From: an uncultured Nitrososphaeraceae archaeon
GTDB taxonomy: Archaea; Thermoproteota; Nitrososphaeria; Nitrososphaerales; Nitrososphaeraceae
Direction: 5' to 3'
NCBI GenBank assembly: GCA_963837175.1
Contig: CAWIMJ010000002.1
Span: 1 to 34,409, forward strand
Length of the DNA stretch: 34,409 nt
The notes beneath the pieces were generated by a model. It had not been told where the DNA came from. It worked only from the letters and a program-made list of their open reading frames with translations, and made no database searches. The translations under genes and the position numbers were made by a program. Of the stretch, positions 16,671 to 29,885 are shown in pieces. Every line of letters begins with the position of its first letter. Within the stretch, counting starts at the first letter, position 1.

Positions 16671-16909
16671 ATTCTCTCATTTTGCATCTCTGGTATTTTG
16701 TCATGTCAACGGTCTTCCCTTTTTATCAATAGAAATATCCTTCCAAAATTAGAATTCCATATAATCCATATTCTAGCCATGTAAGAAATAGATGTAATAG
16801 GTATTACTTACCATAGTTCCCAACACAAGGTGTTTTTCATCTCATAATTTCCCCGAAGTATTTGTATATAAGTAAAAAGATCTATTACTTTGATCTATGG
16901 AATAAGAAA

Positions 16910-19561
16910 ATGTCCTTTGCTAAAGATGCTATATCATCATTAATAGAATCAGACCAAACCAAGGAATATGTACATACTGCAGTAAAATCAACTGTACCTA
17001 CTTTAGTACAGTTTGGCCTTGGATTTGCAGTTCCTTTCTTATCTCCTATAATTATAGCTGCATCATCACATCTGATTTTAAAAGGATTAGAAATTGCCGG
17101 AGATAAAATAAAAGTAGCAGATGATAAAATACAACAATACAAAGGCCAAACTGGAACTAAAGGCTTTCTTGCAAAAATGGCATCTCCAGCTTTAGGAGTA
17201 CTCAAAAAGGTATTTCCTGCCACTGAAAAAGAACTTTATGAAGCCTTAACTGACAGTAACAAACTAAAGCAGTTCCTTTCTGAAATATTAGAAAACCCAA
17301 AGAAAAAACAAGAGTTTGAAGAAAGCCTAAAGAAATTTTTAACTGGCAAATATGGAGATTTTGAAGAATTTCAGAGAAATGTCAAAGACACATTAGGCAT
17401 AGAAGTTGATAGGTTAGCTTTAGAAGCATATACAGAATTCACAAGTATAATTTACAATAGTGAAATATTAAATAAGATTATCACACTTTCTGGAACCTCT
17501 GAGCAGATTAGAATTAATATTGAAGAGAGCATAAAAGAAATTCATAAAGATTTTGAAGACAAATATGGTGAAATTAAAAATGAAATAATAAGTCTTCGTG
17601 ATACCTTTTATGGAAGATATGGATTATACAGGCTCACTCCTAATTACTTTGAAGACTATGTTGATACAAAACAAGATATGGAAAGATGGAAAGAGGGTTT
17701 TAGCTTCCAATCATTATCATCAATTAAGCAGAATAAAGAATTTAGGAGAGATAAAATCCTAGAAGAGATTAAGAAAAGAATTGAAGGAAAAAACCGACAG
17801 TTGATAGTAGCTGGGTCTGGAACTTCAAAAAGCACTATACTTATGGAAATCATTTGTGATTATTATGACAATGGCTATGAAATACTTTGGAATAGAGGGG
17901 ATGCTGTCATAAATAATGGTAATGATATTATAGACTTTATCGGAAAGCTATTGAATGACGGTAACAGAGTATTAGTTGCTGTAGATAATGTTCATGATGA
18001 AAGAAGATCTGCAATATTTTATGCTATGGATCAGCTCTCATTGCATAATAAAAGTAAAAATCTAAGATTCATTCTCACAGCTAGACTTCCAGAATATGAT
18101 TTATTAGTTGATCCTCAAAGGTTGCTAATCCAAGTGCAAAAAGAATATAGAGGTTCTCTGCAAAGATTTAGAGATGAATCTAATAGAAAGGATTCTCTTT
18201 TAAAATATGAAATACCATTCTTTACACACGAAGATATTAGAGGTTTTATTAGAAAGTATAGAGAAGAAGAAATGATATCTTCTACAACAGAAGAAGAAAT
18301 AGTTGTTGGCTCAGAAAAAATCTACAAGGATACAAATGGCCATCCTATAATGGTGAAGTTTGCTGTTATTGGAGAGGGTCTTCGTAAGGACGTTGAAGAT
18401 AGGTATCTTGATTATCTGATTGATCAAACTAGTAAGATAGCTGATCCATCAAAGATTCAAACTATACTTGTATGTTCCCTATTAGATATAGCTGGCTTGC
18501 AAATAACTGACAGATTACTTAATGATATGAAGATAAAGAAATATGCAAAAAACCTAAGACATGCTCTATTATATCATTATCCTGATGGTGGGATATGGAA
18601 GACCATACACCCAAGATGGGATTTAGAACTACTATCTTTTTTGTTTACAGATATTGATGATGAAGACATAACAGACCAAAGACAGAGATACCTTAAGAAA
18701 GCGATAGCCTCTATATTCAGCATCAAGGATGAACAAATAACTGTTTCAATTATAACAACAATGTATGATATTGCAGCTGATACTGTCGATGGAGTTACGA
18801 AAATTCCTATAGATGTTGTTGATAATGTAATAGAAAATCAAATGCACACTTCTGATTATCTAAGCAATGAGACAAAGGTCGATTTATATGCAGTAATCAT
18901 TGCAAATGATTATTATAAGCTTAATAGATTTAATGATGTTGTCGATAAATGTAATAAAGCTTTATCTATAGAGCCTAATAATATTTATGCATTAAATAAC
19001 AAAGCTGCAGCTCTTGATAAGTTAGGTCAATATCAAGAATCTATACCATATTATGATAAAGCTTTATCTATAGAGCCTAATAATATTTATGCATTAAATA
19101 ACAAAGCTGCAGCTCTTGATAAGTTAGGTCAATATCAAGAATCTATACCATATTATGATAAAGCTTTAGCGATAGATCCAAATCATGTTTATGCATTGTA
19201 TAACAAAGCTGCAGCTCTTGATAAGTTAGGTCAATATCAAGAAGCTATAGAATGCTATGATAAAGCCTTATATATAGATCCAAATCATGTTTATGCTTTG
19301 AATAACAAAGCTGCAGCTCTTGATAAGTTAGGTCAATATCAAGAAGCTATAACATATTATGATAAAGCCTTATATATAGATCCAAATCATGTTTATGCAT
19401 TGTATAACAAAGGTAGTGCTCTTGCTAAACTAGCTAAATTTCAAGAAGCTATAGAATGCTATGATAAAGTTTTAGCGATAGATCCAAATCATGTTTATGC
19501 TTTGAATAGCAAAGATATTATTCTTGAGTATATGGGACTACATGAAGAATCTACTAATTAA
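16910..19561 (+). CDS. STAND-class P-loop NTPase with C-terminal TPRs (NLR-like architecture)
   Basis: Variant Walker A AGSGTSKST, Walker B VLVAVDNVH, sensor FILTAR, GxP motif TNGHP, and about 6 TPRs. ATG at 16910 preferred over TTG at 16862. Confidence 0.8.
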   Translation: MSFAKDAISSLIESDQTKEYVHTAVKSTVPTLVQFGLGFAVPFLSPIIIAASSHLILKGLEIAGDKIKVADDKIQQYKGQTGTKGFLAKMASPALGVLKKVFPATEKELYEALTDSNKLKQFLSEILENPKKKQEFEESLKKFLTGKYGDFEEFQRNVKDTLGIEVDRLALEAYTEFTSIIYNSEILNKIITLSGTSEQIRINIEESIKEIHKDFEDKYGEIKNEIISLRDTFYGRYGLYRLTPNYFEDYVDTKQDMERWKEGFSFQSLSSIKQNKEFRRDKILEEIKKRIEGKNRQLIVAGSGTSKSTILMEIICDYYDNGYEILWNRGDAVINNGNDIIDFIGKLLNDGNRVLVAVDNVHDERRSAIFYAMDQLSLHNKSKNLRFILTARLPEYDLLVDPQRLLIQVQKEYRGSLQRFRDESNRKDSLLKYEIPFFTHEDIRGFIRKYREEEMISSTTEEEIVVGSEKIYKDTNGHPIMVKFAVIGEGLRKDVEDRYLDYLIDQTSKIADPSKIQTILVCSLLDIAGLQITDRLLNDMKIKKYAKNLRHALLYHYPDGGIWKTIHPRWDLELLSFLFTDIDDEDITDQRQRYLKKAIASIFSIKDEQITVSIITTMYDIAADTVDGVTKIPIDVVDNVIENQMHTSDYLSNETKVDLYAVIIANDYYKLNRFNDVVDKCNKALSIEPNNIYALNNKAAALDKLGQYQESIPYYDKALSIEPNNIYALNNKAAALDKLGQYQESIPYYDKALAIDPNHVYALYNKAAALDKLGQYQEAIECYDKALYIDPNHVYALNNKAAALDKLGQYQEAITYYDKALYIDPNHVYALYNKGSALAKLAKFQEAIECYDKVLAIDPNHVYALNSKDIILEYMGLHEESTN
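18956..19513 (+). repeat. 102-bp tandem repeat (about 5.5 units) encoding 34-aa TPRs
   Basis: Units start at 18956, 19058, 19160, 19262, 19364 and 19466; the first two are identical in nucleotide sequence. Confidence 0.95.
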
Positions 19562-19874: not shown

Positions 19875-20883
19875 TGCTTTGTTGCATGATTCATTAACTT
19901 TTAAGTGATGTTCATCTGACCGATCTGCATTTAGCTTACTAATAGTAATTATTCTATGTATATGATTGACTGGCCTCTCTATAATGAATCACTAGTTAGA
20001 CGTGGTCAAGTTCTCTTAGATTTTGATATACTTGATGGATGGGATCATGAATTATCTCAAATGAACCGTGGTAAGGTTGGCGAACCCTACGATTATCCAA
20101 ACTCCTTTATTCAGCTTCTAGGTTATATGAGAGTATATTTTCATCTACCATATAGACAAACACAAGGTGTAGTTATAGCTCATACAAGTACAAAAGTACC
20201 GTTCATACCTCATTACAGTACTATTAGTAGACGTATAAACAGACTAGAGATCAAAATCAATGAGAAAATAGGAGATGATATCGTGATTGCTTTAGACAGT
20301 ACAGGTATCAAAGTAGCTAACAGAGGAGAATGGATGCGGCATAATAAATGGCACGTTAGAAAGGGATATCTGAAAATACACGTATCCGTAGATATCAAGA
20401 AGAAAAGAATCCTATCTTTGGAGGTCACAAGTGAAGAGGTACATGATGGCAAGATGCTAAAGAAGTTGGTAGATAATGCTTCTAAAAATAATAATGTGAA
20501 GCGTGTGTTAGCTGATGGTATGTACGATAATAATAAGAATTTTAGATATCTATCAAAGAACCATATTAAACCTGGTATAAAGACCAGAAGTAATTCCAAG
20601 GTCAAGACAACTACTAACTGTCAAGCTAGAAACATGTCTGTAGTAAGACAACAAGCAAACCTCAAAAGATGGAAGCACAGCGTAAGCTATGGACAGAGAT
20701 GGATGACAGAAACTGTCTTTTCGTGTATGAAAAGGATGTTCGGAGAACACGTATCTGCGAGAAAGTTTCCTAACATGATAAATGAGATCTTTCTAAAGGC
20801 ATCTTTGTATAACATGTTTAGTAAGATTATCTGAGTAATCACAGATTATAGCCTTGAAGTTTAGTTAATCATGCAACATAGCA
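19875..20883 (+). mobile_element. IS5-family insertion sequence (IS903-like ends), 1009 bp
   Basis: 17-bp TIRs TGCTTTGTTGCATGATT (19875-19891) and AATCATGCAACATAGCA (20867-20883) with 1 mismatch; flanking direct repeat TAATATGA at 19867-19874 and 20884-20891. Confidence 0.93.
19956..20834 (+). CDS. tnp: IS5-family DDE transposase
   Basis: W..YNESLVRRG, LPYRQTQG, PHYSTISRR, ALDSTG (D1), LADGMYD (D2), YGQRWMTETVFSCMKRMFG (Y-R-E-K motif). Confidence 0.95.
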   Translation: MYMIDWPLYNESLVRRGQVLLDFDILDGWDHELSQMNRGKVGEPYDYPNSFIQLLGYMRVYFHLPYRQTQGVVIAHTSTKVPFIPHYSTISRRINRLEIKINEKIGDDIVIALDSTGIKVANRGEWMRHNKWHVRKGYLKIHVSVDIKKKRILSLEVTSEEVHDGKMLKKLVDNASKNNNVKRVLADGMYDNNKNFRYLSKNHIKPGIKTRSNSKVKTTTNCQARNMSVVRQQANLKRWKHSVSYGQRWMTETVFSCMKRMFGEHVSARKFPNMINEIFLKASLYNMFSKII

Positions 20884-21031: not shown

Positions 21032-21375
21032 ATGGTAAAATATGATGATTCAATATTGCTGAACAATATTAGACCAAAAGCTTTCTTCTTCCAAATGCAA
21101 TTTAATGTAGTAGATATTCCATATGATATAATTACAAGTATAAAACTGGAAAAAGGGTTGTTATCGTCTACAATTAGATTCAAAGCCCCAGCATTAATGA
21201 GCTCAACTAGACTTGGAATGATGGACAGTATAGTTGATGGTGAAGATAATGATCAAGGGCGGCATAATTGAAGCTATTCTAAAGGATAAGGCAGAAGATT
21301 TGTTGGAAATAATTCGTTCGGGTATGCAAGAGAGTGGCGCTAAATCAGCACCCTCAAAAAAACAAAACCTCCCTC
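21032..21375 (+). pseudogene. Fragment of a bacterial-type PH-domain protein, frameshifted
   Basis: VDIPYDIITSIKLEKGLLSSTIRFKAP continues in another frame as GIIEAILKDKAEDLLEIIRSGM; N-terminus missing. Confidence 0.55.
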
Positions 21376-21379
21376 CGAA

Positions 21380-21630
21380 TTACTCCAGCATACTCTACTC
21401 TGTAATGAGCAGTCATCGAATCAACAATTAATAATTTTATTTTTGAATCCGATATAGAACAAGCGGTTCCTACACATGACTCCTGTTGGGCGCTATCTAT
21501 TGGTCTTGCAATCTGAATGTTCTGCAGAATATATTTGGAGTCCAATTTTCTTGCTCTGGCAATAGATTCTATTCTCTCCTGCCTAAATGTAGCCTCAGTA
21601 TTAATGTAGATAGCTTTGTGTTCTAAGGTT
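21380..21630 (-). pseudogene. RadA/RecA-family recombinase paralogue, internal fragment
   Basis: EHKAIYINTEATFRQERIESIARARKLD...ILQNI...KIKLLIVDSMTAHYRVEYAG matches the RadA motifs YIDTE.TFRPER and Walker B LLIVDS...HFR.EY.G. Walker A and the C-terminus are absent. Confidence 0.85.
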
Positions 21631-21876: not shown

Positions 21877-22959
21877 TTACCCGGTCTTAGAACTAGCACT
21901 CTTCTTCTTATCATTACCGTCGCCACCATCACCATCACCATCACTAAGATCTATATCTAATGAGTCGCATAAATCTACTACATTACTTTCTATTTCGTTG
22001 ATATCTTGATCTTCAGCTATTACTTTCATAACACGGTCTTTGTTGTTTTTCTTTTGTTCTGCAACTTCAAGAAATCCTTCTACCTTTTCTTGTTCTGATC
22101 GTATTTGTGCCTCTGTCTGTTCAACAATATTGCTTACCTTGTTTCGAAAATGCAGTATGAACTTTCTGATTGCATTTGGATAAATGTCTATTTCATCTGA
22201 GTCCTTATCTTTACTAGGCAATTCAATAGCTCTATTGTAATTTCTCATAGGAAAGCGTTCTTTAATTTTATGCATTATAAAGTCCCAAAATCGTTCGTCT
22301 CCAACTTGTGCAATTACTGCGTTTATTTCTATACGGCTTTCTTTTAAAAATTCGATATCAATGTGTTTAAACCTGCTATCTGTTTTAACTATTTCTTCTA
22401 CTTTGTTTACTAATTTTGTATTTGTTGCATTTACTACAATTCTCTTGTCTTTCTGTAAACCAAAGTGTTCTAATGTAGTATCATCCATAGTTATGAAGTA
22501 TACACTTTCATCACACTTAGATGCTAGATTGATACCAGATAGATCATAGTCCGTAATTACGATAATATTGGCACCGGATTCTTTGGCTGCCTCTATTAGA
22601 TCATGTGCGTATTCAGTTAGATATCCTCTGCTATTAACCATCGCAACACCATATTTGTCGGCGTGCTCCTTCAGTTCGTCTATAATTCCTTCTTTTTCTA
22701 TGAATATTAAATCTGTTCCTTTTGCTGCTAACTCCCTAATAGCATCAAAGCTAACACTTTCCCAACCGCCGTCAAAATACAGCTCAGCTCTTGCACCTGT
22801 AACTATACCTATATCAGCACGCTTTTTGCCTACCTCATCACATATTTTTCTAATTAAAGTTTTGAACCATGCTCTAGTTACCTTGATGTCAAATCTTTGC
22901 ATATCAGGAAGAAGCAAGTACCAAATTGTATCAGTAGATCTCATTTTTTTGGTGGTCAT
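21877..22959 (-). CDS. Topo VIA/Spo11-like TOPRIM subunit (short; Mini-A or Topo VIII-like)
   Basis: TDTIWY (cf. the RDxYY catalytic Tyr motif), FIEKEG (TOPRIM Glu), SRGY, ITDYDLSGI (DxD), RIEINAV; ATGA overlap with the upstream gene. Confidence 0.8.
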   Translation of the reverse strand: MTTKKMRSTDTIWYLLLPDMQRFDIKVTRAWFKTLIRKICDEVGKKRADIGIVTGARAELYFDGGWESVSFDAIRELAAKGTDLIFIEKEGIIDELKEHADKYGVAMVNSRGYLTEYAHDLIEAAKESGANIIVITDYDLSGINLASKCDESVYFITMDDTTLEHFGLQKDKRIVVNATNTKLVNKVEEIVKTDSRFKHIDIEFLKESRIEINAVIAQVGDERFWDFIMHKIKERFPMRNYNRAIELPSKDKDSDEIDIYPNAIRKFILHFRNKVSNIVEQTEAQIRSEQEKVEGFLEVAEQKKNNKDRVMKVIAEDQDINEIESNVVDLCDSLDIDLSDGDGDGGDGNDKKKSASSKTG

Positions 22960-24963
22960 GTCGTAATAGTGTCCTTTTTCTCCTCAGCGTAGTATTCGTA
23001 GTCATAGTCGCTGTTATTGTTCTTGTTGTTGGTCACCAACCCGTGCTCCTTCCTCAGATAATCCATTAGTAGATCTTTTAGCGATTTTTCGCCGCTACTA
23101 CTATGCAGTCGTATTGCATTACGACGCTCCTCTGGTTTTCTGAAACTATAGCCTAAAGCATGAAATGATTTAATTTCAGAAGCTATTCTTTTTACTCCTT
23201 CCATAATTGTTTCGGTAAATGGACTTGTATCTATACGTGATTTATCCTGGCCGTGTGGATCACGTCTTGGTGTTACCAGATTAGCGACTACAAGACATGG
23301 TATTTTTGCGCTATCAGTTGCATATTCGTGAAATCCATAGTGTTCTAAAACACCTAGGATGTTCGTGGTAGCATCATATTCCCTGGTCCCATCATTATAA
23401 GCCGAAACTTCTTTGTATTCGCCTTCAAAAAGACTGCCATATGTTTTTGGTGAAATAGAGTAATTGATTGCGCCTATAAAATCAATTCTTTTTTTTGCGT
23501 GTATTGGATCTGCAAATGGAATAGCCAATATTTCCCAAAAATAAGGATAAGCTATTCCTTTTTTTGTATCTTGATAATATCCATGAATTGACTTATATGA
23601 TGCCTTCTTTTCATCGCTATCTAAGTTGTCGTAAAGTTTTGCAAGCCTTTCGATAAGAACTGCTTTTCTTTGTTGTTTGTTAGCGGTGTACGGTAAGATT
23701 AGCTTCGGTGGAGCAGGCAATGCATTCTGTAATTGCTTATAGAAATACTCTATTTTCCTATTCCGTTTTTTATCATCAAGTAACGATAATAATTTGGCTA
23801 CTGATATCTCATTTTCAGCACTTTTTTTTAGATTACTGCCTTCTCTATATGTTGCAACAAGTATATCGTAGACCTGAGTCTTAGCGGCATGTTTGGGATC
23901 TATATTTACAATGCGTCGTTTGAATTCTTCTGGTGTATACGAATGCACGCTGTTTTGTTTATTCCATGATTCATTTGATATAGGATGCAATGCGTGGTAT
24001 TCTATATTTACCGTTGATTTTGGGGACTCTTCTAATGCAGTAGTTACAAGGGCCTTTGCAAAAGATGCCGCTCCTGCTGTTGTTGTTCTTCTTATTCTCA
24101 TTCTTGTTGTTAGTAGTATTGTCATTATCATTATCGTTGTTATTATTACTACTATCAATGATGCCTACATCTTTATTGTTATTGACGTTGTAATAGTAGT
24201 ATTTTGAGTTATCAGTTATATGAAATCTAAAAGTGATGTCTGTTGTGAATAGGGGATATCTCTTGCAAAAGTCTTCAACGCATCTTCTATCTAAAACGTA
24301 TTTTACTTCATCGATTATTGGTAATACAAGTTCAATCTCTGTATCGCTGTGCGTGAGTTCTTCTCCATGCGTTTCTCCCACTTTAACTATTGCTGTTTGC
24401 CTAACTTTGTCGACATTTAGATATACCTTAAATTCTCTTTTATTGTGGTGGATTATTAAAGGATGCTTTGGTTGCTTATCTTCAAATGTACTTCCATCAT
24501 CATAGTCGACATGAATTAGTATGTATTCAAATGCCAGTATTTGTTTTAATGCATCGCCTAACATTCCCCTGCTTATTATATGGACATCTTGCTTTGATCC
24601 ATAGCGCATTTCATAATCAAATATTGCATCTAGATTTGAGAACACTGGAATATTTTTATAATTTGAGTTGCGAATTTTTAGGCGAAACATTTTATCATCT
24701 TTGTATATATTTACATCAATGACTGTATCGTCTGCGCCTTTGTAATTTTTGCTTAAGAAGTCTACAGCATTATCTAATAACTCTCTAATGCATAGCAAAT
24801 ACCAATCTTGTTTGTTCGAATATCCTGTCCTTAGAGTTACGCCGTCTACAGTGAAATAGTCAATGCTGTGTTTTCTATAGGTGAAAATGTCCTCTACTGC
24901 TGGATTAGTAGCAGGGGGGTCCTCATTTTCTGGCTTGTTGTGAGCTAGATTTTTGTTATTCAT
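22956..24963 (-). CDS. Topo VIB-like GHKL ATPase with transducer, split by one frameshift in an Asn-rich insert (about 24075-24200)
   Basis: IRELLDNAVD (N-box), YGSKQ, SRGMLGDALK (cf. Topo VIB TRGxxGxGxK), SDTEIEL, and distal GQDKSRID (cf. the transducer Lys loop). ORFs 23971-24963 and 22956-24158 overlap across low-complexity sequence. Confidence 0.8.
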
Positions 24964-24978
24964 TTTTGTTCGTTCTTT

Positions 24979-25140
24979 TTATTCGTTTTTGTCTTGTAAT
25001 ACAAGATACCAGTCCCTTTTGTTTGAGTATCCAGTTCTAATGATAACGCCATCCACAGTAACGTAATCCATGCTATGTTTTCTAGAGGTAAAAAAGTCTG
25101 TCATGATGGGGAGTCCTTTGCTTTCTGTCATCATCATCAT
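24979..25140 (-). CDS. 53-aa ORF duplicating the N-terminus of the adjacent GHKL subunit (not in ORF track)
   Basis: MMMMTESKGLPIMTDFFTSRKHSMDYVTVDGVIIRTGYSNKRDWYLVLQDKNE*; 25 of 32 aa identical to DIFTYRKHSIDYFTVDGVTLRTGYSNKQDWYL. Confidence 0.7.
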   Translation of the reverse strand: MMMMTESKGLPIMTDFFTSRKHSMDYVTVDGVIIRTGYSNKRDWYLVLQDKNE

Positions 25141-25169
25141 TTATTCTCTGTATAGCCAACGCTCTGGAA

Positions 25170-26183
25170 TTACAGGCCGATTGCCTTTTCCACCTTTTTA
25201 GCATATTCTGCAATCTGTTTCTCAAGTTTTTCAACAGGATTAAAAACATCGTTTATGAAATCGATAGCAGATTGGTTTGGATGTTTTCTTTCTTCTATCC
25301 TGCATACCGTATCCTTTCCTATTGATTTTATGTATATGGAAAACAGATGGTTAAGATGCTTCACCTGAACCTTTATTGCTGAAAAGTGGAGCAAGTCGCT
25401 AACTTTAATGTCTTTATTGATATCGCATTCAGTCAGCTCCCATTCTAATACATCGTCAACAATTCGTTCATGCTTGTCTTTTAGCAGATTTATCAGACCA
25501 GCTCTAATCTGTCCAAAGAATTCTATGATACGGAAGTGATCTTCTTCTGTTTCAAGTTTATAGGGATTGTTACTGCATTTAGCATGAATATCCACTGTTC
25601 CTTTGGAATAGAACACATAATCCACTCCGGTTTTACCTATGATTTCTGCATGGTGTTTTCCATTATTTCTCTTGTAATATGGAAGGTCTAACTCTGAATA
25701 ACATTCTGGAAGGACCTTGGTTTTAAAATGCATATTGTGGATGTATAATGGAGCTTCAGGCAGTAATGGAAGTACATAGCCTTCTAATGTATGAACAGTC
25801 GTAAGTTGAAGGCATTGAGAAAGAGGGAATTTAGATGAAGATAGAGTTGGTAATAGTATGCCTACCCCTGAGGGGTCTATTGGTGTATTCTTTGCTATCT
25901 TTTCTATTACTTCAGCTTTAATTGGAGTAGGATAGTATTGCTGTGGTCTCCTGTCTTTTAGTGTAAATAAATTGCCTGTTCTCAGATGATATTTTAAAAT
26001 GTCCTGAGCGTGAGTTTTATGAAGAGCTATTCCTGCATCAATTAAATCTATGTAAGTTATTCCTTTTCTAGTCTTCTTAAATTTATTAGTAGCTATCTCT
26101 ATGATTGTCGAAGAATGAATATATGATCTGTGGCCAGAAAAACACTGCCCGACTAAGTCAAGTGGTGTAATCTTGGTGGACAT
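25170..26183 (-). CDS. wHTH protein with a putative replication-initiator-like C-terminal domain
   Basis: N-terminal wHTH-like GITYIDLI...AQDILK...LFTL...PQQYY; C-terminal LTECDINKD, IYIK and CRIEE recall the Rep_trans motifs RxDxxxD, YxK and RxE; TAATG overlap with the upstream gene. Function is inferred. Confidence 0.55.
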   Translation of the reverse strand: MSTKITPLDLVGQCFSGHRSYIHSSTIIEIATNKFKKTRKGITYIDLIDAGIALHKTHAQDILKYHLRTGNLFTLKDRRPQQYYPTPIKAEVIEKIAKNTPIDPSGVGILLPTLSSSKFPLSQCLQLTTVHTLEGYVLPLLPEAPLYIHNMHFKTKVLPECYSELDLPYYKRNNGKHHAEIIGKTGVDYVFYSKGTVDIHAKCSNNPYKLETEEDHFRIIEFFGQIRAGLINLLKDKHERIVDDVLEWELTECDINKDIKVSDLLHFSAIKVQVKHLNHLFSIYIKSIGKDTVCRIEERKHPNQSAIDFINDVFNPVEKLEKQIAEYAKKVEKAIGL

Positions 26184-27048
26184 TAGTGGTGAATTCTATC
26201 ATAACTGCCGCTGACACTTCTGCCGCTATGGTCTTCAGTTGTACTTTGTTGTGATTTTCTTCCTGTACAAGCACTAAGGACTTTTCCAGTACTTTTGTCA
26301 AATGTGACGCTAAACCAGATATAGTCTTTTATCTTATCTACATTAAAGCTACTAATGATATATTTGCGGACATCTTCTAGTGGAAGAGAAAATTCAAAAT
26401 GCAAAATATTACTACTATTTTCCAACTGGCTGCCGTTATCAGCTGACGAAGAAGGTTGACTTATCTGGTCTGCTGGTATTAATTGGGTTGCTTTTCGGAG
26501 AGCGTCCCTTAATTCATTAAGCTCAGCACGTAGATCTTGGCAACTTGAGCACTCATTTAGATTTGATACAATTTTTTGCATTTTTAATCGTGTTTGTAGT
26601 GAATTAGCATTTACAGAATCATATTCAGATAAAGAACTGTTGCCTGCAGATAGATCGGAAGTTAATGGTATATCCTCCTCAACAGATTTTCCTTGAATAG
26701 CGGCAACAACTATTTCTTCTTCTCCTGTTCCTGTTGTAAGGGTGCTGCCAGAAAATCCAGCAGAATTATGCTCCTTTTGTCTTAATCTACCAGCTTTTTG
26801 CTTTTCTTGATTCTTAGCTTCTTCAGGTAATGCATCTAATATTGTCCTTTTAGCCCATATTCCAGCACAATCTTTCTCTATCCTATCCCTTGCATCTTCT
26901 GGTGAAATATTGGAATTTTCATTGAGGAGCGCTTCGTACATCTTTGGAATATATTCCTTAGCCGTTGATCGATAAGCTTTGCTCTTGTTCTTGCCTCTTG
27001 TAAGAGATCATCATAATCAGTCAATTTGCTGCATCGCTTATTTTTCAT
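26183..27048 (-). CDS. Conserved hypothetical element protein, one base missing near 26978
   Basis: From ATG 27048: MKNKRCSKLTDYDDLLQEARTRA-(frameshift)-AYRSTAKEYIPKMYEALL, joining ORF 26183-26941; includes a CxxC before a short coiled coil. Confidence 0.65.
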
Positions 27049-28421: not shown

Positions 28422-29856
28422 TTATTCTTCAAATGTTTTCTTTGTTAGTGCTTCTGGCTTGATGTATGCTAATTGTGGATTTCGCTGTATCATTGACATA
28501 ATCTGACTGAATTGTCGGTTCATTTCTTCACGCATAGCCTTCATATCTTTTTCATATTTTTCCTTAAGGATTTTGTTTTCTTGTTCAAGCTCCATTTCTC
28601 TAGTATATTCATTATCCAAATTAACTGGGAGTGCACATCTAGAACAGAAATTCATTCCCGGGCTTATAGATTCTGAACACCTTTTGCATATTAATACTTT
28701 TAAGTTTATATTCTTCAATCCTTGGTTGTCCTATTCCTTCATTTAGTGCAATAAGCGCATTATCCACATCTTTACCTGATAAGTGTATATAGCGTCTAAC
28801 TACTTTTGTTCCATGCTCCCAACCAAAGAAAATACACATTTGTGCTTCTGTTAGATGATTAGCTAAGTGTGTTGCTCTAGAATGTCGCAATATGTATAAC
28901 CTACGATGCTTGTTAATCAATCCTGCATTTGGTAACGTTTCTTCGATTATTTTCTGAGCTCCTCTAAGTCCTAATGGTTGGTTTTTGAAATTTGTTGCTG
29001 TACTTATCCATAAAGGATATTGGTTCTGGTTTGTAAGAGGATGTACCTGTAGCCATTGTTGTAGTAACTTGACAAAAGATATGATCCTTACTCTCCTTTC
29101 GCCCGTCTTTCCCCTCAGCATAAAGACTGCGCCCTTAGAATCTACTTTTATGTCCAGGTTGGTAAGTCGCAAGAACTCCTCAGGTCTTGCTCCACTTTCG
29201 TACATGCACGCAAGAAAAGCTTTTTTTTGCACTGTAGGAGCTGCTTCTATTAATTTCTGAACTTCTTCTTCTTCCAGGTACTCTGACATATCCATATTGG
29301 TCTCTTTTCCTATCTTTTCTTTTCCTAGATTAACAGAAAACCAATTAACTGCTTCCGGATAGTGTTCATTGTTTCCATAAACTATCTTATAATAAAATTT
29401 CAGAATACGTCTGAATTTCTCATGGGTTGATGCTTTATAGTTTTTATCATCCATCCATTTCAATAATGACCTTATATCGTCTTTATCAGCATCTTTGAAG
29501 CTTTTTCCAAGATGTCTTCTCATCAAGAGAAGCGCAGTTATGCACCTAATTATCCATAATATACTGCTTTCTTTATCCTGCATGAATTGTATGAAATTTA
29601 AAACATCAGTTTTATCAGGTTCGTGAAGCTCTGTATTTGCTCTTTTAATCCAATAAGCAAGTTTCTCCTTTCTATGATACAGGTCTCTCATTTCATAGTT
29701 TGTGTTGATATGATGATTGAACTGAGTTTTAAGTATTTGGTCATTAGATGGTTTGTTGTTAGAATAATTCTTGGTTGTTTTGATTTTAGGGATTTGAACT
29801 GAGGATTCAGTGGACTGGGCGGGATTTGAACCCGCGACCACATACTTGCGAAGCAT
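28422..29856 (-). CDS. int: Tyrosine recombinase/integrase with C-terminal zinc ribbon; one extra base at 28698-28701
   Basis: ESGARPEE (R), GKTGER (K), YILRHSRAT (xxxRH), FGW, RRYIHL (Y). Removing one T joins EYKLK to VLICKRC...NFCSRC and a coiled coil. First ATG outside the tRNA is at 29691. Confidence 0.93.
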
Positions 29857-29885
29857 GCATTACTACCAGCCTGAACTACCAGCCC
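29811..29885 (-). tRNA. tRNA-Ala(CGC), intronless, CCA not encoded
   Basis: GGGCTGG...CATGC-TTCGCAA-GTATG...GCGGG-TTCAAAT-CCCGC-CCAGTCC-A folds as a cloverleaf with anticodon CGC, the G3:U70 alanine identity pair and discriminator A. Confidence 0.97.

Follow-up and report, generated by a model that had tools for sequence, protein, structure and literature searches.

A probable recombination scar: the stranded 5′ end of a topoisomerase-like gene at the join of two related integrated elements in a Nitrososphaeraceae genome

Why should a 53-codon open reading frame (ORF) lie directly ahead of a topoisomerase-like gene and repeat the N-terminal segment of that same gene? The question is raised by a 34,409-nucleotide (nt) stretch of DNA from an uncultured archaeon of the family Nitrososphaeraceae (GenBank assembly GCA_963837175.1, contig CAWIMJ010000002.1, positions 1–34,409 of the forward strand), which is here called the window. 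An earlier reading of the sequence, the original prediction, had offered two answers: a scar of allele replacement, left when an incoming topoisomerase module recombined into place downstream of an older 5′ end, or a dominant-negative mimic of the N-terminal strap of the ATPase encoded next door. We consider it very probable that the small ORF is a recombination scar, in which the 5′ end of one allele was stranded where two related integrated elements were joined.

The element next to the tRNA-Ala gene of this soil Nitrososphaeraceae genome would, on this reading, be a chimera of two related elements. A left-hand block, of the lineage represented by locus L020, would contribute a gene of 337 amino acids (aa), the intergenic region that follows it and, from a type IIB topoisomerase-like gene, codons 1–35. 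Position 24999 would be the point at which this block met, out of register, an entire but divergent topoisomerase module of the type represented by protein P0161 and locus L022, and the incoming module would have brought with it 35 nt ahead of its own start codon. The relic codons, an upstream ORF fused to them through a 2-nt deletion and six junction codons would then simply happen to read as a 53-codon ORF. The parts of the locus on which the argument turns are as follows.

24979–25140, minus strand: the 53-codon ORF, composed of 12 fused leader codons, 35 relic codons and 6 junction codons (LQDKNE), followed by TAA
25170–26183, minus strand: upstream gene, 337 aa, of no known family; flank of the L020-type lineage
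25105–25169, minus strand: putative native 5′ region of an L020-type topoisomerase gene, including a short upstream ORF (25105–25140) now fused in frame
25000–25104, minus strand: putative relic proper, codons 1–35 of an L020/P0153-type topoisomerase VI-B-like gene (residues 13–47 of the 53-aa ORF)
24998–24999, no strand: putative recombination junction, placed by BLASTN end points and by the alignment with L020
24964–24998, minus strand: spacer of 35 nt from the junction to the resident start codon, with an in-frame TAA at 24979–24981
24793–24897, minus strand: the resident gene's own 35-codon N-terminal segment, of the P0161/L022 type

The small frame and its repeat in the neighbouring gene

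Both the 53-aa ORF and the adjoining 330-aa ORF (23971–24963, minus strand) are present, and their likeness is real and far beyond chance. BLASTP aligns residues 11–48 of the small ORF with residues 21–58 of the 330-aa ORF without a gap, with 26 of 38 residues identical and 31 of 38 similar (E = 3e-18); this is the match that had been counted before as 25 of 32 residues, and it stands. At the DNA level the likeness is a direct repeat of 100 nt, 73% identical, between 24792–24891 and 24999–25098, with a start-to-start distance of 207 nt. A search of the archaeon's own genome (3.81 Mb in 58 contigs) with the small-ORF protein gave only two matches, which are the two copies in the window. Over the 38 codons the copies differ 9, 6 and 23 times at codon positions 1, 2 and 3, respectively, and 21 of 23.7 synonymous sites differ, as against 17 of 90.3 non-synonymous sites. 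The original prediction spoke of several synonymous changes; these are present, and their number was understated.

In an AlphaFold model of the neighbouring protein the copy ends four residues before E61, within the helix formed by residues 51–73. The earlier statement that the copy diverges just before the catalytic helix was therefore close to right, the end lying inside this helix. The repeated piece is the whole segment of ∼35 residues ahead of the catalytic Glu, with the equivalent of the strap within it; 'strap', as the piece had been called, is a slightly loose term for it, the strap being ∼10 residues long.

The small ORF stands in a tightly packed row of ORFs of 252, 337, 53, 330, 400 and 360 aa on the minus strand (21877–26941), with gaps of 29 and 15 nt on its two sides. 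It shares frame −3 with the resident ORF; a single TAA lies between them, and 15 nt separate its stop from the resident ATG. Read-through of this TAA to give a fusion with a double strap was considered; we know of no TAA read-through in these archaea. The 35-nt spacer could not be aligned with L020 or with the region upstream of the L022 gene, and against the archaeon's own genome it gave only A-rich chance matches. A near-repeat of 20 nt (85% identical, 23 nt apart) surrounds the resident start, at 24950–24969 and 24973–24992, one copy having ATG and the other ACG; it may have come from a small duplication by slippage, or from chance in a stretch rich in A.

The exact 53-aa sequence is absent from a collection of 15 billion proteins that does hold the 330-aa and 337-aa ORFs, so no gene caller had recorded the small ORF. 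Neither Pfam nor PHROGs gave a match for it or for the two topoisomerase B-like ORFs of 330 and 400 aa.

The junction and the two allele lineages

Homologous loci were collected with a 17-sequence profile alignment (A1), which found 24 metagenome loci; 8 of these, together with 2 of 8 genome loci, were compared with the window by BLASTN. The first ∼910 nt of L020 match the window from 25900 to 24999 at 87.8% identity (916 nt), and the match stops there; beyond 24999 the identity is 64.7–68.4% across the topoisomerase genes. In steps of 100 nt the identity to L020 is 84–94% from 25817 to 25020, after which ∼200 nt align only to gaps, and it is 25–77% across the topoisomerase genes from 24819 to 21954. 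The proteins behave in the same way: identity to the L020 counterparts is 82.9% for the upstream gene (over 246 aa, against the gene that precedes the topoisomerase gene there) and 94.6% for the relic, and falls to 59.4 and 47.4% for the two B-like ORFs and 49.2% for the A-like ORF. All ten loci match the relic side, and none extends past 24999. The match ends at 24999 in L020, L040 (88.1%), L034 (84.8%) and L073 (76.7%), and at 25001 in L079. In the alignment with L020 the common sequence ...TGGTATCTTGTAT, ending in CTTGTAT, is followed by unrelated sequence. One flank of the small ORF is thus collinear with one lineage up to a sharp break, and a different lineage lies beyond it.

The origin of the relic is also apparent from its protein relatives. 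Proteins longer than 93 aa were searched with the small ORF, and 16 of the 19 candidates reached E ≤ 0.01, with 79–96% identity over the matched part and, in most cases, a length of 583–612 aa. Four of them (P0152, P0153, P0155 and P0157) start exactly at the internal Met of the small ORF (MTDFSTSRKHS...). Counted from this Met, the relic is identical at 33 of 35 residues to P0152 (201 aa), P0153 (606 aa) and P0155 (596 aa), and is therefore nearer to this other allele than to the adjacent gene (26 of 38). The matching segment of the resident gene is identical at 25 of 33 residues to the same three proteins and at 31 of 34 to P0161. The DNA agrees: the relic is identical to L040 at 97 of 105 nt and to L020 at 95 of 105, and the resident segment is 79% identical to L022.

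A tree was built from this 105-nt segment with 34 rows, consisting of the two window copies and 32 loci chosen for having the whole segment (L003–L019, L021, L026, L042, L043, L048 and L050–L072 were left out). It places the relic with L020, L040, L034, L079, L041, L073 and L047 (support 91/84) and the resident copy as sister to L022 (support 93/87); with 105 columns the support is moderate. The resident gene is 79% identical to P0161 in frame −3 (down to 24205) and 75% in frame −1 (from 24071). The closest relative of the resident module is L022, with protein identities of 77.7 and 71.0% and, from 24956 on, a nt identity of 80.9%. The L022 gene has a different gene upstream and a non-coding leader of ∼215 nt.

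These comparisons bear directly on another alternative, in which the gene duplicated its own 5′ end locally, in tandem, and the copy then diverged in place. The two copies share strand and frame and lie 207 nt apart, as such a duplication would leave them. However, the relic has 90–92% DNA identity to the genes of other elements and 73% to its neighbour, the likeness in the 207-nt register is confined to ∼100 nt (flanking 20-nt steps are 10–45% identical) and the upstream flank follows the lineage of the relic and not that of the resident. Tandem duplication was rejected, and we give it almost no weight. Since the relic is closer to the other allele than to its neighbour, it is better understood as the stranded 5′ end of that allele than as a local duplicate; saturated synonymous sites together with a kept protein sequence also fit two alleles that diverged as working genes and not a young local duplication.

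The leader ahead of the relic belongs to the same lineage. The region 25105–25169 is collinear with L020, L040 and L073, at the identities given above. In L020 and L040 it holds an upstream ORF of 11 and 10 codons, respectively (MMTESKGLLPS at 769–804 of L020 and MMTEIEGPPS at ∼870–902 of L040), the TGA of which overlaps the main ATG. The frame of this ORF is kept between the two sequences, the only ones in which it was seen, despite a length difference of 3 nt; by its position, the ORF may be a translational coupling device. Relative to L020 the window has a 2-nt gap and a 6-nt ATGATG insert, which bring the upstream codons into frame with the relic and give MMMMTESKGLPI. The frame of the L020/L040 upstream ORF is thus broken in the window, which is a hint of decay.

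In L040 (at 840) and L073 (at 2043) homology with the window starts at 25174, two bases beyond the stop of the 337-aa gene (25170–25172), so that in these two loci the shared topoisomerase leader is preceded by another gene. From the sequences compared, module exchange at gene boundaries seems to be common among these elements. The 337-aa gene itself has no Pfam or PHROG match, and a protein atlas placed it only in an unnamed archaeal cluster, at 0.78.

How much can be read from the changes in the relic? Residues 7–35 of the segment are identical in L020, L040, L034, L073 and L079, despite 4–15 synonymous codon differences between them. The window relic carries S5F and L22I and three private synonymous changes. 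Position 22 is an invariant Leu in alignment A1, and its replacement by Ile would be at most a faint hint of relaxed constraint. In a simulation the 35-codon frame stayed open in 83% of the trials with four random changes and in 70% of those with eight; as most random copies stay open, the open frame is no evidence of selection. The pattern seen between the two window copies resembles purifying selection on the small ORF, and is equally expected of alleles that diverged inside full-length genes. The low ratio of non-synonymous to synonymous change between the copies is best read as coming from their past as full-length genes. The two lineages, the breakpoint and the lack of a second case among the loci searched are direct results, and we infer that the relic has no function of its own. 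It is probably still transcribed, given the packed row of genes on one strand and the native start region that has been kept, and it would perhaps be translated into a passive by-product of 41 or 53 aa. No RNA run was present among 20 listed sequencing runs of 8 studies.

Several points weigh against the view of the small ORF as a mere scar. The frame of the small ORF is unbroken and is shared with the resident gene; with its native start codon and an upstream region at 88% conservation, the ORF could well be translated. On the window branch there are three private synonymous changes and one or two amino-acid changes, and neutral decay is not shown by these numbers. The junction is present in one lineage only, and selection since the join is not measurable either way. 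None of the contig pieces from four sequencing runs (31–373 nt) bridges 24999, and the junction rests on one assembly. Finally, a right-hand breakpoint was not found: the downstream identity to L020 never returns to ∼90%, and the best downstream match is 75.9% over 249 nt at 21386–21628, across a Rad51-like fragment. With a single breakpoint seen, 'join of two elements' is a safer description than 'replacement', and what is shown is a join and not the replacement of a cassette. With that reservation, the scar put forward in the original prediction is strongly supported and right in substance, the 5′ end of another allele lying at a sharp breakpoint at 24999.

The lack of a bridging piece raises the further question of whether the contig is a chimera, assembled from the elements of two co-occurring strains. 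The source genome is metagenome-assembled in 58 contigs, relatives of both allele types are present in soil metagenomes and no examined contig piece bridges 24910–25031. Yet the join is 207 nt out of register, and the alleles have no long exact word in common there (73% identity over 100 nt); with unrelated sequence beyond the junction, a graph assembler has nothing to mis-join. Run X4 has near-identical pieces on both sides (24759–24909 and 25032–25182) at similarly low depth, and the exact N-terminus of the resident gene recurs in two other assemblies (P0167 and P0168). On balance we regard an assembly artefact as very unlikely.

Occurrence elsewhere and possible roles of the small frame

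The original prediction had itself asked whether homologous loci keep the small ORF, and had named absence from all related elements, with no expression, as the mark of a one-off duplication or recombination scar. No stand-alone homologue of 29–93 aa was found in a search that depends on common five-residue words and that very distant homologues could escape. A second copy of the N-terminal motif is absent from the 17 loci of relatives (19 were searched, two of which are the window itself; the second matches all have E > 1), from all 24 metagenome loci and from all 8 genome loci, the last of which overlap the set of 238 genomes described next and are not independent of it. In a family-wide search 35 of 238 genomes matched, at 74 places, and only in the window do two places share a contig; the other 72, in 34 of the 237 other genomes of the family, are each on a different contig. 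One of the matched genomes, G258, is flagged as unpublished and contributes one place. None of six other genomes of the same genus has the gene. A search of genome contigs with the single protein gave no relative, and neither did one of viral contigs with alignment A1. As far as these searches reach, the tandem small ORF is absent from related loci, and the arrangement is not kept.

A different remnant of the same gene start was found in L042 and L043, which are one locus in two metagenomes. It is 45 aa long (L042 3215–3352; L043 245–382) and is cut after RTGY, where an unrelated, convergent gene of 294 aa follows; there is no topoisomerase gene on the contig. It is a stranded 5′ end of this gene family in its own right, independent of the one in the window. 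Remnants and broken copies are common in the family, which speaks for a scar.

Where related plasmids, phages or integrated elements recombine illegitimately or out of register, fragments of gene 5′ ends are left behind. The window resembles such remnants at mosaic junctions in that its flanks are collinear with different lineages, the break is sharp, the gene start is truncated and the arrangement is absent at related loci. It differs from the usual case in that the fragment is open, lies in frame 15 nt before its paralogue and encodes the dimer-locking segment of a GHKL enzyme.

Though a scar by origin, the relic might now have a role in cis, which we think unlikely. The relic and its native upstream region might supply transcription or ribosomes to the incoming module, with translation restarting at the resident ATG 15 nt further on. 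Such a role would suit the packing of the genes on one strand with gaps of 29 and 15 nt, the 35 nt of spacer in place of the ∼215 nt of non-coding DNA ahead of the L022 gene, and the overlap of the L020/L040 upstream ORF with the main start, from which coupled starts may be native to these genes. On inspection, however, no Shine–Dalgarno-like motif is visible before the resident ATG; the resident gene is split by a frame break, so that strong selection for its expression is doubtful; and the arrangement was found once only.

A second possibility is that the peptide of 41 or 53 aa acts as a free N-terminal strap, which would bind the ATP lid and block ATP-dependent dimerization. In a study of the S. 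shibatae enzyme, the strap of topoisomerase VI-B consists of ∼10 residues at the extreme N-terminus and locks the dimer, working as part of the full protein (PMC1616964). The counterpart of the relic in topoisomerase VI-B is the stretch ahead of the catalytic Glu, chain residues ∼4–37, and the strap lies within this stretch. Constraint on this segment is strong in full-length genes, as seen in the identity of residues 7–35 in five sequences, and the native start signals are kept. Dominant-negative micro-proteins are truncated paralogues that titrate a dimerizing partner, and their genes are conserved and independently regulated. Like them, the small ORF is short, keeps an interaction segment and has no catalytic part; unlike them, it occurred once in the searches, which gave no homologue of matching size. 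No second tandem case was found, and the L042/L043 remnant, cut at another point, lacks a neighbouring ATPase gene. Nothing can be read from the open frame, for the reason given by the simulation; the constraint on the segment is explained by its life inside a full-length gene and the relic is altered at an otherwise invariant Leu. A natural free-strap inhibitor is not known to us, although no systematic search for one was made. A micro-protein thus appears highly improbable, and the dominant-negative mimic put forward in the original prediction finds no support here and fails the test of conservation that had been proposed along with it.

A variant of this idea seems just as far-fetched to us. 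The relic is identical at 33 of 35 residues to the strap segment of L020-type enzymes and at 26 of 38 to the resident protein, so a translated peptide might prefer L020-type enzymes. It could then act in trans, preferentially poisoning the ATPase of competing L020-type elements as an incompatibility or exclusion factor. If this were true, a recombination by-product would have been turned into an inhibitor of a rival element's DNA-cleaving enzyme, and it would, as far as we know, be the first natural strap-mimic inhibitor of a GHKL enzyme.

The resident module and its host element

The module downstream of the junction has three ORFs.

23971–24963, minus strand: resident ORF 1, GHKL (Bergerat-fold) ATPase domain, topoisomerase VI-B/VIII-like, of the P0161/L022 type
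22956–24158, minus strand: resident ORF 2, the rest of the B-like protein (H2TH/transducer-like), in another frame
21877–22959, minus strand: topoisomerase VI-A/Spo11-like subunit (5Y-CAP + Toprim), 360 aa; its start overlaps the stop of the preceding ORF

Sequence searches against known structures gave little for ORF 1: phmmer against the PDB sequences returned only a histidine kinase at E = 1.4, and the A1 profile had no match in the PDB. An AlphaFold model of residues 1–261, made with 66 homologues, has a predicted local distance difference test score (pLDDT) of 89.3, and its top Foldseek match is topoisomerase VI-B (1z5a_B, E = 5e-8). VIA-align superposes residues 25–261 of the model on residues 4–213 of the topoisomerase VI-B chain with a Z-score of 17.1 and a root-mean-square deviation of 2.8 Å over 196 residues; gyrase B, topoisomerase II and MutL come next, with Z-scores of 12–14. 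The original designation as a TopoB-like GHKL ATPase was thus correct, topoisomerase VI-B being the top match by both methods.

The motifs agree in part. Among the 66 homologues E61, in the ELLDN box, is nearly invariant, and N65, G133 and G136 are invariant. The family profile reaches topoisomerase VI-B at E = 8e-4, with the N box (family lKEllDNAlD, topoisomerase VI-B vRELIENSLD), the G2 box (family RGaLGDAlK, topoisomerase VI-B RGMYGLGVK; the window has GMLGDA, of the GxxGxA type) and the switch-lysine region aligned. The G1 box of topoisomerase VI-B, DNGIG, falls on 'pknip' of the family, in a domain alignment of 7.9 bits in which the register is uncertain. Should this register be correct, the family would lack the adenine-binding Asp, and its binding of ATP may be altered. 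Near the G1 position, at residues 95–105 of the ORF in alignment A4, there is a stretch RNSN..NIP with conserved N99 and N101, and DxGxG is not evident. The transducer is also recognizable: the profile matches residues 387–472 of topoisomerase VI-B at E = 8e-4 to 1e-3, with ygKSri aligned with AGKESI. In the window this part is encoded by the second ORF, in another frame.

In the VI-A-like ORF, Y14, E88, D137 and D139 are invariant in 14 sequences, and the ORF matches phrog_6247, annotated as 'DNA topoisomerase', at E = 1.8e-7. Its model has a pLDDT of 79.4. Foldseek matches it to topoisomerase VI-A (E = 3e-5 to 8e-5) and Spo11 (E = 1e-3), and also to the MksG and JetD nucleases; the TM-scores are low (0.29–0.36), which means that the domain orientation differs or that the model is loose.

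The break in the resident B-like gene lies at 24071–24205, within a low-complexity linker rich in Asn; L022 has a much shorter one. The 400-aa ORF overlaps the 330-aa ORF in another frame, and the last ∼60 codons of ORF 1 are this linker read out of frame. Contig pieces from runs of two studies (X1, 24071–24252; X4, 24103–24253) reproduce the stretch without gaps, so that the break is probably a real frameshift or split gene and not a one-off assembly error. Broken copies are frequent in the family, and the genomes that have the gene often contain several: 27 of 28 loci match P0153, and in 7 of the 27 the pieces are in different frames. Members with split frames in Nitrososphaeraceae genomes are L054, L057, L060, L050–L053, L077, L078 and L080; those of L054 and L057 break after the GHKL domain, like that of the window. 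Two explanations suggest themselves: a linker that is prone to slippage, or tolerance of a B subunit made of two ORFs. The two subunits also differ in how they are joined. In L020 (679–3720) the B-like and A-like parts are fused in one frame of about 970–1013 codons; in the window the A-like ORF is separate, with its start overlapping the preceding stop at 22956–22959; and homologues exist in both forms, of ∼600 aa (B only) and ∼1000 aa (fused). The family comprises 312 cluster representatives at E ≤ 0.001, and the named relatives are Nitrososphaeraceae.

Topoisomerases VIII are reportedly type IIB topoisomerases of plasmids and integrated elements. Takahashi et al. (2019, PMC7671362) describe them as mobile-element type IIB enzymes with the signature RVELNAM; in that paper, 'Thaumarchaeota' occurs once, in the reference list. 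The window module is like topoisomerase VIII in being borne by a mobile element, in having a B-like GHKL part followed by an A-like 5Y-CAP/Toprim part, in its G2 box of the GxxGxA kind and in occurring in fused and split forms, and its RIEINAV stretch resembles the RVELNAM signature. It is unlike topoisomerase VIII in having no Pfam match, in its weak profile link to topoisomerase VI-B (E = 8e-4), in showing no DxGxG G1 box in the weak alignment and in belonging to the Nitrososphaeraceae. The module can thus be said to resemble the topoisomerase VIII of mobile elements, a likeness of features and not one of alignment to published topoisomerase VIII sequences. In the passages of the topoisomerase VIII literature examined (including PMC7671362, PMC8185306 and PMC6563490) the module is not described for Nitrososphaeraceae; tables or supplements of these papers may list it.

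The surroundings fit a mobile element integrated next to tRNA-Ala. An ORF for a tyrosine integrase (from 28639 on; 405 aa) runs into a tRNA-Ala(CGC) gene at 29810–29885 on the same strand; a search for an exact att-like repeat of at least 14 nt linking the tRNA-Ala region with sequence elsewhere in the window found none. Downstream of the module there is a Rad51/RadA-like fragment of 63 aa (21354–21545, minus strand), the counterpart of which in L020 (4028–4549) is 173 aa long and matches the Pfam family Rad51 at E = 2e-27. Just beyond the fragment lies a DDE transposase (19956–20834, plus strand; DDE_Tnp_1, E = 1e-24), which may mark an insertion sequence that disturbed the end of the element. 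Further on, an 899-aa protein (16862–19561, plus strand) combines a novel STAND NTPase domain (E = 3e-9) with nearly identical TPR repeats.

If the small ORF is the stranded 5′ end that it very probably is, the locus is a clean case, resolved to the base, of module exchange between integrated elements of soil ammonia-oxidizing archaea. It would also be a reminder that an open, conserved-looking small ORF beside its paralogue need not be a gene. The scar itself matters little; the family of B + A modules that surrounds it, which has no Pfam coverage, is the more interesting by-product.

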